From a virus (lineage: Duplodnaviria > Heunggongvirae > Uroviricota > Caudoviricetes), in IMG/VR virus record IMGVR_UViG_3300009979_000063, positions 64,001 to 80,361 of that record: a DNA stretch of 16,361 bases. The stretch is one strand, 5' to 3'. The notes under the pieces are model-generated. The model saw only the letters and a list, made by a program, of their open reading frames with translations. It ran no database searches and was not told the DNA's origin. How positions within the stretch are numbered: the first letter of the stretch is position 1; each line of letters begins with the position of its first letter. This document shows positions 3,019 to 15,876 of this stretch, piece after piece. The translations under genes were made by a program, and so were the position numbers.

Positions 3019-3234
3019 GTGACAGTTTACGTTGAATACATCATGAAAGACGGATCTAACCGTTGGGCAGTAGAGCCGGTGACAATCGATTCCATCGACA
3101 GCTCATTGCTAGATATTCGAATGGCACTATTCAAGGCTGTTCAATCTAGCTACCCGGCTTTTAACGACCCTTACGAACTAGACATAATTGATATTAAGGA
3201 AAAACTTGAAGATTTCTTCGTTCCTAACAACTAA
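3019..3234 (+). CDS. Hypothetical protein (71 aa)
   Basis: GTG start after GAAGGTG; lies within the operon. Confidence 0.75.
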   Translation: MTVYVEYIMKDGSNRWAVEPVTIDSIDSSLLDIRMALFKAVQSSYPAFNDPYELDIIDIKEKLEDFFVPNN

Positions 3235-3809: not shown

Positions 3810-3974
3810 ATGACATCCTTAGATAGTTGTGACGGACCTTTGGTTTGGTTCGATGTCGACATGCTAGACGGTAGCAAACAAGCAATATTGGAGTGTGGCA
3901 ACTGTCCTTACATAGTTGTTACCGGCAATTGGAATGACCACAGGCACAATGAAACACCTGTCTTGAAACCATAA
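3810..3974 (+). CDS. 54-aa putative Zn-binding protein (MTSLDSCDGP...CGNC...HRH)
   Basis: Start moved to ATG 3810 after GAGAG; Cys/His ligands; ends at the terminator. Confidence 0.7.
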   Translation: MTSLDSCDGPLVWFDVDMLDGSKQAILECGNCPYIVVTGNWNDHRHNETPVLKP

Positions 3975-4004
3975 AGGCCGGACCCATTGCGGGTCCGGCC
4001 TTTA
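3972..4004. terminator. Bidirectional hairpin terminator between convergent genes
   Basis: TAAAGGCCGGACCC-ATTGC-GGGTCCGGCCTTTA: a 14-bp perfect stem with short A/T runs at both ends. Confidence 0.85.
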
Positions 4005-4008
4005 GCTC

Positions 4009-4926
4009 TTAGCTGATGTTCTTGTAGAGATTCAGCTTTCGGTAAGCGTGATGCGCTCTTTCGCTACCGGCACTTGCCGCATAAATCTCTAGCATTTTTC
4101 GTGATTCCCACCCCATGATTCGCATTAGATCAGTTTCTCCACCGCCCGACATCAGCCAGTTATGCGCGAAAGTATGCCTGAACTTGTGTGGATGCATGTG
4201 CACTCCGCTTTCAGCCTGCACTTTGCGAAACAGAATTGAAATGCCGCTGGCAGTCAAAGAGCCACGTTCACCTAGCCAGAGTTTGTCGCCTTCGTGCCAA
4301 TAACTAGAACGTTCACGCATGTAGTGCCTAAGCGCTAGACCGCATTTAGGACCGAACGGAATCGTTCTATCTTTGCGTCCCTTACCGTGAACGTGCACGG
4401 TGTAATGAACAAAGTCAACGTCGTCCGGCTTAAGCTTTGCTACTTCACCGAGTCTAGCGCCAGTCTCTAGAAATACTCGCAGAATTGCAGTATTCCGCCG
4501 GGCCTGGAACTTAGTGAACTTGTATCTAGCTGCTCTAAGCATACGTTCTATTTCAGCATCAGTAAATACTTCTACAGGCTGAACAGGAACCTTCGGCTTT
4601 TCAAGTTTGGACATCGGAGACTTGGGAAGTTCTTCAACTTCGGTCATGTACTTCCAGAACTGCTGCAAAGCGCGCCAACGTCCGGCAATGGTTTCGCTAG
4701 ACATCTTGGTGTCAGCTTTTTGTCCCGGCTGATCGCGCAGCCAAGCGAAATACGCATTTACGGCCGGTAGACGAACACGTGTCGGGTCATCTGGTAAGTC
4801 ATTCGCTTTAAGCCAGGCAGCAAAATAACCTAGATTACGAATATACCAGTCGACAGTAGTCTTTGACTTATTTTCAGCGAGCAAATGCATACGCCAATAC
4901 TTAGCGTATTCGTCAAAGTCTGCCAC
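4009..4926 (-). CDS. int: Tyrosine recombinase/integrase, XerC/D-like (core-binding plus catalytic domains only)
   Basis: Catalytic set: R (ETGARLGEV), K (HGKGRKDR), HxxR (HKFR), W in place of the second His (MGW, as in Cre/Flp) and Y (MLEIY). 305 aa. AGGAG RBS before the GTG. Confidence 0.95.
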   Translation of the reverse strand: MADFDEYAKYWRMHLLAENKSKTTVDWYIRNLGYFAAWLKANDLPDDPTRVRLPAVNAYFAWLRDQPGQKADTKMSSETIAGRWRALQQFWKYMTEVEELPKSPMSKLEKPKVPVQPVEVFTDAEIERMLRAARYKFTKFQARRNTAILRVFLETGARLGEVAKLKPDDVDFVHYTVHVHGKGRKDRTIPFGPKCGLALRHYMRERSSYWHEGDKLWLGERGSLTASGISILFRKVQAESGVHMHPHKFRHTFAHNWLMSGGGETDLMRIMGWESRKMLEIYAASAGSERAHHAYRKLNLYKNIS

Positions 4927-5048
4927 TACTGCTCCTAAAGGGTCGCCTTGCAGCGCTTGGGCATCGAACGCAGAACAAGAGACTACAAGATCAACTCAGC
5001 GTGTGCTAGCACGCAAACGTGCAGCTCAGCCTACTAGAGCAAGTATCG

Positions 5049-5070
5049 GCTTAGCCCGAATGGGCTAAGC
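5049..5070. repeat. Perfect 9-bp inverted repeat immediately 5' of the tRNA fragment
   Basis: GCTTAGCCC-GAAT-GGGCTAAGC. Confidence 0.9.
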
Positions 5071-5071
5071 A

Positions 5072-5105
5072 ACTTCTAATCTCTGGGTCGCAGGTTCGAG
5101 TCCTG
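5072..5105 (+). other. tRNA-Arg(UCU) 3'-half fragment; candidate attP common core
   Basis: CTTCTAA anticodon loop (TCT at 5075-5077), TCTCT 3' stem, GGGTC variable loop and GCAGG-TTCGAGT-CCTG T-arm, ~150 bp from the recombinase start. The acceptor stem and the 5' anticodon stem are absent. Confidence 0.75.
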
Positions 5106-5379
5106 GCTTGATCTTCGCTAACGCTCTGACCTGCGCAAACTCGCTTCGCTCGCGGGGGCACTTTAACTTATGTTCGAACGTTTCAGGCTGATAGAGCAAG
5201 AGATTTCCGCAGCTCCAAAGATCAAGTAACGATCGCATAACAGCTCCGGGAAGGTCGTCCAAACGGACTAACGACAGGGCCGGAGGGTTAGGGCTACAAT
5301 GGCCCATGCAGACACTTCCTCTCGTAGTGCTCTGCCGGGTGCTTGACCGGACCCGCACGTAGCCCCCACCACAGGGCTA

Positions 5380-5419
5380 GAACGGGGTCCCTCGCTACAG
5401 GGACCCCGTTCTTCGTTTT
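5380..5419 (+). terminator. Strong hairpin with a T-rich tail on the + strand
   Basis: GAACGGGGTCCCT-CGCTAC-AGGGACCCCGTTC (13 bp), then TTCGTTTT. Confidence 0.7.
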
Positions 5420-5494
5420 CCGGAACTGCTCGGGTCCGGCCTTGCATGCATGCGCCGTAACAGCGTCTCAGAACGCCGCTAACAAGATCAACAG

Positions 5495-5731
5495 TCAGTG
5501 TGCGGTCCGGGTGTCCCGTAGCCCTAGCCGCTCGATCAGAGCCTTCTCGCTGCGCGCACTGAACTGCAAGGAACCGTGTGTCTGATGCCACCCCGGGTTA
5601 ACGTCTGACCAGAAAAACAAGCCTTCGCCGTCCGTATTGGTTCGCCAACGACTAACGACGTCGGTCTCCGAGTCCCGCACCTCCCATGTCCACCCGTTCC
5701 CGTGCTTTTCGATGCTGACCAGTTCGTTCAC
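5495..5731 (-). CDS. Hypothetical protein (78 aa, MNELVSIEKHGNGWTWEV...)
   Basis: GTG 5731 follows a GAAGGAG RBS; Trp-rich beta-strand pattern. Confidence 0.8.
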   Translation of the reverse strand: MNELVSIEKHGNGWTWEVRDSETDVVSRWRTNTDGEGLFFWSDVNPGWHQTHGSLQFSARSEKALIERLGLRDTRTAH

Positions 5732-5746
5732 GACTTTCTCCTTCAC

Positions 5747-5821
5747 TCACATATAGCAGGGCACCGCGCAATTATTGCCGAGATTGACGCACGGATTGCA
5801 GTTGCACCGACACTTTAGCAT
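5747..5821 (-). CDS. 24-aa Cys-rich peptide (MLKCRCNCNPCVNLGNNCAVPCYM)
   Basis: Not in the ORF track. AGGGA 8 nt upstream, 6 Cys in 24 aa, and it fills the intergenic gap within the operon. Confidence 0.45.
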   Translation of the reverse strand: MLKCRCNCNPCVNLGNNCAVPCYM

Positions 5822-7582: not shown

Positions 7583-7848
7583 TATAAGTACCTGTCAGCG
7601 ATTCGGCCCGGTGTATCTAGATTGTTGAGTGGATACTGACGCAATCCGTTATTTCGTATATCCCATTGTCCCTTTTCTGTAAACCATGCACATTGACAGG
7701 TATTCCAAGTGCAATTCGCTATCTGTCTAAAATTTTTTACGACATACTTTTTCCCCTGGCGAAAAAGCTCCGTTCTATCGTGCTCGTGTTCCTTGGTCGA
7801 ATGCCCGCAATTACAAATCAATGACGTAGTACGCTGCGTTTCTGACAC
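7582..7848 (-). CDS. Small Cys/His putative Zn-binding protein (start uncertain)
   Basis: CNCGHSTKEH...C...CQC motif. Confidence 0.7.
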   Translation of the reverse strand: MSETQRTTSLICNCGHSTKEHEHDRTELFRQGKKYVVKNFRQIANCTWNTCQCAWFTEKGQWDIRNNGLRQYPLNNLDTPGRIADRYL

Positions 7849-8086
7849 TGACGATCCCCTCTTCTTTCAGCTCGTCCAGCATTCGACGTACATAACTGTA
7901 GCTGTAATCGCACCGCCGGGCGATTTCTGCCGCAGTAGTCACACCTTCACTAATGTGCTTAACGATGTCTCGCTTTCGGCTCTGCTGGCCGGGCTTGGGA
8001 TGATTGAGCTGTGCAGCGCGGCGCTTGTCAGTCAACATTTTCCTTACGCTTTCGGTAGGCGACATAAATCGATCGGACGATTGCAT
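7811..8086 (-). CDS. Winged-helix DNA-binding protein (start uncertain)
   Basis: DIVKHISEG-VTTAAEIARRCDYSYSYVRRMLDELKEEGIV-SVR: an HTH followed by a wing. Confidence 0.8.
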   Translation of the reverse strand: MQSSDRFMSPTESVRKMLTDKRRAAQLNHPKPGQQSRKRDIVKHISEGVTTAAEIARRCDYSYSYVRRMLDELKEEGIVSVRNAAYYVIDL

Positions 8087-8847: not shown

Positions 8848-9060
8848 TTAAATCAAGACGATTTCGCGGAGATGCTCGCCCTCGCGTAATAGCACCTCGG
8901 CATTATCCTGTTTTACTGCTCGATAGACGAAGTCTCCGTAGCCGATGAGACGACGAACCGCTTCGGCCAGTCCGATTTGCTCGTTCTCCATAATAAGTTC
9001 GAGAGCTTTGACGACCTCCGCGGTGACCGGAACGTTGATCCGCTTTGGCCTCAGTGTCAT
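8848..9060 (-). CDS. Ribbon-helix-helix (CopG/Arc-like) DNA-binding protein
   Basis: KRINVPV beta-ribbon, TAEVVKALELIMENE helix and IGLAEAVRRLI helix. Confidence 0.75.
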   Translation of the reverse strand: MTLRPKRINVPVTAEVVKALELIMENEQIGLAEAVRRLIGYGDFVYRAVKQDNAEVLLREGEHLREIVLI

Positions 9061-15608: not shown

Positions 15609-15715
15609 CTTTACGATGGCGCCAGAATTCGTACCTATTTGCAATAGCTTTACGATCGCGCTATAATTTGTACTATAGTTAATGCTTTACGAACTTTAGC
15701 AAATAGCTTTACGAT
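15609..15715 (+). repeat. Four copies of CTTTACGA (15609, 15648, 15685, 15707)
   Basis: Read directly; copies 2 and 4 extend to AATAGCTTTACGAT. Confidence 0.9.
15639..15667 (+). promoter_or_regulatory. Near-consensus rightward promoter
   Basis: TTGCAA-N17-TATAAT. Confidence 0.75.
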
Positions 15716-15876
15716 AAAATAGTCTAGCGCTTAATCTAAACGGGCATATCGGACATGTCGGACATACAGACAGTTATCGGGCCTACTGTATCGATCAAGT
15801 TGTCATAATGATTATTATCGGTGTGGATCTTGACATGTTGATCTTGCTAGCAGAATAATGCGGAATTGGCTCTTAC

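Follow-up and report, generated by a model that had tools for sequence, protein, structure and literature searches.

The window analysed here is a stretch of 16,361 nucleotides, the rightmost part of a viral contig of 80,361 bp that is rated 62% complete and is without end repeats. Its major capsid protein is 61–64% identical to those of the Streptomyces phages Coruscant, Beuffert and Blueeyedbeauty, which make up the BE/BK clusters, and Coruscant is classified under Stanwilliamsviridae. The window is part of a partial Streptomyces BE/BK-like phage genome. Phages of the BE/BK clusters are lytic and rich in tRNAs; both complete relatives of the phage that were examined encode a tRNA-Arg(UCU), and no integrase was found in one complete metagenomic relative, the only relative scanned for one. 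The tRNAs of the contig itself amount to one tRNA-Ile and one weak tRNA-like match, both near its left end, and no cognate tRNA-Arg(UCU) gene is present in its 80,361 bp (62% of the genome). These two left-end elements, of which the tRNA-Ile has the anticodon UAU and the other is degenerate, lie on the minus strand (L248; G000:C1:4567-4644 and 3165-3231) and are possibly the edge of a tRNA cluster lying in the missing part of the genome.

Within the window, a leftward tyrosine integrase gene is bordered upstream by a series of short direct and inverted repeats and tRNA-derived segments (Table 1). The protein carries all catalytic residues and no N-terminal arm-binding domain; across 48 homologs R158, K182, H247, R250 and Y282 are invariant and W273 nearly so. 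Its best homologs, from Actinomycetota and Chloroflexota, are 41–45% identical over their full length, and none exceeds 45% protein identity over the full length, so that there are no alignable copies of the site. Direct searches with the window integrase returned no close viral relative, the sole other member of its cluster being the same genome. The best matches among isolated phages are a cluster E mycobacteriophage and Streptomyces phage Kromp, at 28–34% identity over the full length. The similarity to PDB 5VFZ Gp33, which we take to be the Brujita Int, is weaker than that to XerA/XerD. The top PDB sequence match is 9I5V chain 14, which has 401 aa and bears the name RaiA; the similarity spans residues 23–275, and the chain probably represents a recombinase to which RaiA is joined by fusion or read-through. 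The candidate promoter that may drive minus-strand transcription of the integrase gene is one of 23 genome-wide matches to the pattern and shares its −10 hexamer with a unit at 15697–15725; it overlaps the repeat at 4987–4994 and a small hairpin at 4999–5014, both discussed below.

The surroundings of the integrase gene have some features of their own. The G+C content is 57–60% at 5000–5750, against 46% genome-wide, and the hairpins on either side of the integrase module (3972–4004 and 5340–5446) have a 13-nt exact repeat in common (3990–4002 and 5431–5443); the flanking hairpins and the rise in G+C are possible borders of an acquired module. At 5271–5412 lies a possible small-RNA unit that converges with the leftward operon: a plus-strand promoter-like site and, behind it, a terminator hairpin of 14 bp whose tail is T-rich. 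Farther to the right, a 91-aa winged-helix protein (7811–8086) and a 70-aa ORF that looks ribbon-helix-helix-like by eye (8848–9060) are candidates for a repressor or a directionality factor.

Table 1. The integrase gene and the elements of its attachment region. Positions are those of the window; 'loop' is the tRNA anticodon loop, and 'hairpin' the palindrome at 5049–5070.
Feature	Position	Strand	Remarks
Tyrosine integrase, intact, 305 aa, arm-less (core-binding and catalytic domains only)	4009–4926	−	Pfam Phage_integrase, E 1.6e-27
Distal half-site copy (tRNA 5' core half-site, facing core)	4972–4982	+	9–10/11 match; 90 bp from loop, 68 without hairpin
Candidate integrase promoter	4980–5008	−	Promoter-like pattern match: −35 at 5008–5003, 17-nt spacer, −10 at 4985–4980
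AAGATCAA copy; 5' strand of proposed closing stem	4987–4994	+	One of four local copies
Left accessory motif, GCAGGTCA type; 5' strand of 'D-arm'	5015–5030	+	44 bp from loop, 22 without hairpin
Second half-site copy; 3' strand of 'D-arm'	5036–5046	+	8/11; 26 bp from loop, 4 without hairpin
Perfect 9-bp palindrome, 4-nt loop, 22 bp	5049–5070		Probable insertion into short att arm
Predicted 7-bp crossover region (tRNA-Arg(UCU) anticodon loop)	5073–5079	+	Identity start in relatives
tRNA-Arg(UCU) 3' segment: anticodon 3' strand, variable loop, T-arm; stops before acceptor strand	5080–5105	+	
Inverted AGAnCAA-type repeat in acceptor-strand position; 3' strand of proposed closing stem	5104–5115	−	
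Right accessory motif	5125–5140	−	47 bp from loop (family 45–47 bp); 22.1 bits
Third half-site copy (5193–5203) with D-arm-like 5' extension	5181–5203	+	10–11/11; 113 bp from loop
Third accessory motif (score 9.0), then another AAGATCAA copy	5203–5226	+	

The original prediction had drawn the region upstream of the integrase as an expanded, tRNA-like cloverleaf with two inserted hairpins. All of its pieces are present and every listed pair passes a pairing check, including the segment 5073–5105, which had been named as the anticodon loop to T-arm of a tRNA-Arg and is 31–32/33 identical to known tRNA-Arg(UCU) genes; the pieces are real, and the cloverleaf is not. As drawn, the structure reaches −40.2 kcal/mol, 9.2 above the optimum of −49.4 kcal/mol, and contains no anticodon stem. 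The 4-bp D-like stem (5024–5040) can be written out, but its pair probability is 0.01; likewise, the 8-bp inverted repeat proposed as a closing stem (4987–4994/5108–5115) is genuine, yet its pairing falls to 0.0 with about 30 nt of flank and it forms only with the ends trimmed exactly. The 5-bp stem of the first hairpin (4999–5014) is present with a pair probability of just 0.35, and the T-stem reaches 0.45. The perfect 9-bp hairpin at 5049–5070 has a pair probability of 1.0 in every context. The stretch does fold better than its shuffles (z −3.6 to −4.0), an excess that comes from this hairpin, since z is −1.3 without it, and one of 36 ordinary attachment sites of the integrase family folds as well as the window.

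Nor do tRNA models find a tRNA here. ARAGORN and Rfam call none in the region, ARAGORN at a relaxed score and with introns allowed returns noise only, and RF00005 matches just 15 nt of the T-arm (E 3.5). The anticodon stem, the invariant D-loop GG and the acceptor strand are missing, and the T-stem has 4 bp, not 5. The D-arm-like match at 5024 (16/23) is above chance, equal scores occurring at just 5 of 160,000 genome positions; a better copy (17/23) lies downstream at 5181–5203, outside the tRNA order. The out-of-register D-arm and the closing stem occur together in none of 31 related 3'-half attachment sites.

A comparison across the integrase family accounts for the pieces at the level of DNA. 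From 246 loci fetched, 193 distinct upstream regions were obtained, and in 168 of these a tRNA or tRNA half, in either orientation, lies within about 330 bp upstream of the integrase gene (125 full tRNAs, 34 3' halves, 7 5' halves and 2 doubtful matches). In two chromosomes the integrated element, 15.2 kb long in one and 9.4 kb in the other, has a tRNA beside the integrase gene at one end and a displaced 3' fragment at the other. Because the identity between tRNA and fragment begins at the anticodon loop in both of these chromosomes, we conclude that the family integrates at anticodon loops; most free family sites likewise begin there. Restoration of the tRNA's 5' half is seen in about a quarter of the family (38 'full, away' loci together with L022, L030, L064, L075, L226 and L244), and close homologs differ from one another in the half restored, 5' or 3', and in the tRNA, with many tRNAs represented; in the Islander catalogue, 5'-half restoration is found in only 159 of 3919 islands (PMC4383910).

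Around the loop, family sites share a set of landmarks. Regions upstream of the integrase gene are enriched in an accessory motif of GCAGGTCA type (33 of 179 regions, vs 0 and 3 in controls); the end of this motif lies 45–47 bp from the loop in 47 long arms, on the side of the tRNA half, and 22–24 bp from it in 22 of 40 short arms. The position weight matrix (PWM) for this motif was built from 69 family sites, whose 10th percentile score is 11.1. Short arms also carry a copy of the target's own 11-bp core half-site at 66–68 bp from the loop (17 of 40; permutation mean 0.65, maximum 4), and long arms carry copies at 78, 100–101 and 111–113 bp, the last peak being weaker (8 vs 1.4 expected). The copies at 66–68 bp follow the target sequence across six targets, namely tRNA-Met, Lys, Phe, Ala and two Arg isoacceptors (for example at L002, L007, L011, L040, L041, L127, L276 and L277). 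Twelve related tRNA-Arg(UCU) phages supply most of the 66–68-bp matches, and the family counts overstate independence because many loci are close relatives. The ends of the two integrated elements were left out when the pattern was derived, and in both elements the motif falls at 23 bp and the half-site copy at 67 bp. Literature searches identified no protein that binds the accessory motif, and a search of largely open-access texts yielded no description of an att layout with target-tracking half-site copies. A second family motif, of GCACAGCG type, occurs at 14 bp and at 65, 76, 87 and 98 bp from the loop with an 11-bp periodicity, independently of the target; the window holds just a weak version of it, near 4999–5006.

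The same landmarks can be placed in the window. Its right motif has the top score among all 160,000 genome positions and is 15/15 identical to the motif of the closest homolog (L001/L002). The left motif, with a PWM score of 10.3, lies in the top 0.01% of the genome, slightly below the family's 10th percentile, and is the same variant as is found at 23 bp in that homolog. The third half-site copy with its extension is the genome's best match to the tRNA 5' segment. Four local copies of AAGATCAA compare with 0.04 expected, and seven AGAnCAA-type repeats in 574 bp with 0.44 expected. The supposed D-arm is the end of the left accessory motif plus the second half-site copy, and the supposed closing stem is two of the seven local AGAnCAA repeats. 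The tRNA-derived segment matches Pseudonocardia-type/actinobacterial and some phage tRNA-Arg(UCU) genes at the identity given above, with only 2–4/8 in the acceptor, and is just 23–24/33 identical to the tRNA-Arg(UCU) of the two complete related phages. The core is intergenic and no repressor-like ORF runs across it. As it now stands the site is almost symmetric, with half-site-like repeats at 26 and 24 bp and motifs at 44 and 47 bp.

We therefore favour, with a probability of roughly 0.8, the reading that the region is a remodelled double-stranded attP of the adjacent arm-less tyrosine integrase, targeting an actinobacterial tRNA-Arg(UCU); the target type, the crossover position in relatives and the layout of motifs and distal copies are each shown by the family comparison. 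The original prediction had offered a recombination site as one option and was right in kind. Its remark that the region was more than a standard att 3' half holds for the inserted palindrome, the extra half-site copies and the absent acceptor strand, and for nothing beyond those.

Some candidate signals around the site were set aside. The helical phasing of the local repeats gave R values of 0.94 or 0.20, depending on the register chosen. A fused attR–attL arrangement, with a 3' half followed by a 5' half, was rejected, its spacer having a phage-type motif at 47 bp and its second 'core' being without short-arm landmarks. The region upstream of the integrase gene matches mycobacteriophage Inca over 14 nt, which a shared motif accounts for.

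The palindrome is one of the points at which the window departs from its relatives. As the site carries a 3' half, its left arm would be expected to be short. Without these 22 nt the left motif would lie at 22 bp and the distal copy at 68 bp from the loop, compared with 23 and 68 bp in the closest homolog, and because its removal restores two family spacings we read the hairpin as a probable insertion of 22 bp, or two helical turns, into the short arm. When deletions of different lengths were scanned against the closest homolog, identity was highest, if weakly so, at 22 nt (34/100 identical; 20–32 for other lengths), and a stem of at least 8 bp is seen in only one of 32 related arms. The second half-site copy keeps true D-loop spacing, and here an insertion of 26 nt fits better than one of 22 nt. 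The 22-nt hairpin recurs exactly in another viral contig (L271), where neither similarity in the flanks nor, within the 14 kb examined, an integrase goes with it; the match is taken as chance because the palindrome has only 13 free bases. Partial matches at genome positions 41812 and 15038 fall inside coding regions.

The 26-nt spacing bears on the one part of the prediction's tRNA relic that survives as a minor alternative, and for the D-arm piece alone. The D-arm would be real tRNA sequence, and the attP would once have shared the D-arm-to-T-arm block or the whole tRNA gene before a net 26-nt, hairpin-bearing insertion broke it. Both the 16/23 match with correct D-loop spacing and family site L121, which retains tRNA positions 10–75, speak for such a history. 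However, removing 26 nt would bring the motif to 18 bp and the distal copy to 64 bp from the loop, whereas the family peaks lie at 22–24 and 66–68 bp; the D-loop is without GG, and the better 'D-arm' downstream at 5181 stands in no tRNA order. We consider this origin, which would be another history of the same att site or of a tRNA gene in decay, quite unlikely. The palindrome itself could instead act by extruding as a cruciform under supercoiling, which would restore the 22-bp arm spacing and switch integration, loosely like folded attC or the CTXphi attP. It is perfect, very stable and 2 nt from the crossover, and its length equals the excess spacing exactly; against this, it is absent from relatives, an insertion of 22 bp preserves helical phase without any extrusion, some 17 perfect stems of at least 9 bp occur in this genome, and 9-bp GC-rich stems extrude poorly, which together make a switch of this kind very unlikely.

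A transcribed RNA, either a tRNA-mimic or decoy (for example against anticodon nucleases) or a guide for the recombinase, we hold to be extremely improbable. It would draw on the z of −3.6 for the exact 129-nt window, on the authentic anticodon loop and T-loop and on a closing stem that pairs if the ends are cut exactly. The folding results above disfavour the cloverleaf on which a mimic or decoy was predicated: the D-stem has a pair probability of 0.01, an anticodon stem is lacking, the closing stem is lost with flanks and the z-score is due to one hairpin. No plus-strand promoter match was found upstream of the region, the rightward operon upstream ends at the 14-bp hairpin at 3972–4004, the architecture is absent from the 31 related sites, and the parts have a DNA-level explanation at family-conserved spacing. 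As for a guide, bridge RNAs have paired left and right guides, whereas the tRNA-matching pieces here are all in the same sense, and a literature search found no RNA-guided tyrosine recombinase.

Cognate 5' halves and family 3' halves rebuild a tRNA in 31 of 34 sites (one flagged doubtful), two of the failures having one partner only, which was phage-derived. In contrast, the window 3' segment rebuilds a tRNA with none of 15 cognate 5' halves. An inverted repeat occupies the position of the acceptor strand, so that integration would destroy the host tRNA-Arg(UCU) and leave no working copy. The really unusual features of the site are thus the inserted palindrome and the missing acceptor strand. 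We put nearly even odds on the phage having become lytic and the site being a relic in decay. Somewhat short of even are the chances that a phage tRNA encoded in the unassembled 38% of the genome complements the loss, which would amount to tRNA-dependent lysogeny, and use of a non-tRNA secondary site seems improbable.

A working scheme for the site can be drawn from the shared landmarks. Crossover would take place within the anticodon loop of the tRNA-Arg(UCU) gene of an actinobacterium, with the integrase bound to the 11-bp anticodon-stem flanks and presumably also to their distal copies, while a putative host DNA-bending protein at the GCAGGTCA-type motifs may fold the arms; by analogy, the distal half-site copies could stand in for the arm-type sites of lambda Int. 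The two-turn palindrome would then be an addition to the short arm, and the apparent cloverleaf a by-product of repeated binding sites, some inverted and some tRNA-derived, that resemble tRNA arms. In its fullest form the proposal would be that a widespread family of arm-less integrases of Actinomycetota and Chloroflexota controls integration through distal half-site copies, looped in by means of a host factor and replacing arm-type sites, and that this phage is temperate through a working site re-tuned by the palindrome as spacer or switch, supplying its own tRNA-Arg(UCU) in place of repair; taken as a whole, this is rather doubtful. If true, a member of a large, tRNA-rich phage clade would have been made temperate. 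The family layout would offer a test of how integrases without an arm domain assemble an ordered complex, and a rule for retargeting. In a tRNA-rich BE/BK-like phage, an attP without the means to repair an essential tRNA is a candidate either for tRNA-dependent lysogeny outside the mycobacteriophages or for a decaying integration module. Worth following are the unrepaired tRNA and the half-site copies, which track the target across the family.

Lysogeny of the tRNA-dependent kind, in which a phage tRNA complements the lost host tRNA, has been described for the mycobacteriophages Fionnbharth (K4), cluster L and Gaia (PMC10865867). As in these phages, the window attP overlaps a tRNA without rebuilding it, and the phage clade is rich in tRNAs, the cognate one included. 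Unlike them, the window shares 33 bp, compared with their cores of 8–17 bp, its integrase is arm-less whereas Fionnbharth-type integrases have arm domains, and the complementing tRNA is not seen in the 80,361-bp contig (62% complete). In the isolated phages with the nearest integrases, the cluster E mycobacteriophage and Kromp, no tRNA fragment was found upstream of the integrase gene, and the cluster E attP is reported to lie within the repressor gene (PMC9753646). Brujita-type 'simple' arm-less integrases are described in two papers (PMC8138268, PMC7194413). The window integrase resembles them in its size of about 300 aa, in having no N-terminal arm-binding domain and in coming from an actinobacterial phage, and has just distant similarity to the Gp33 of PDB 5VFZ (E 1e-8). 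Its attP, however, is intergenic, where that of Brujita is inside the repressor gene, and in contrast to 'simple' sites it extends over about 250 bp, with conserved accessory motifs and distal copies of the half-site.

A further parallel is the class A, anticodon-loop type of tRNA-targeting attP catalogued by Islander (PMC4383910). The window differs from this class in that its tRNA fragment ends at the T-stem and cannot restore the tRNA, and in that a palindrome abuts the core. As in class A, an intact integrase gene adjoins a block of tRNA identity that starts at the anticodon loop, with flanking accessory sites at conserved positions, those on the left side holding only if the 22-bp insertion is allowed; and the relatives of the window integrase are like class A in that one half of the tRNA, 3' or 5', is restored.
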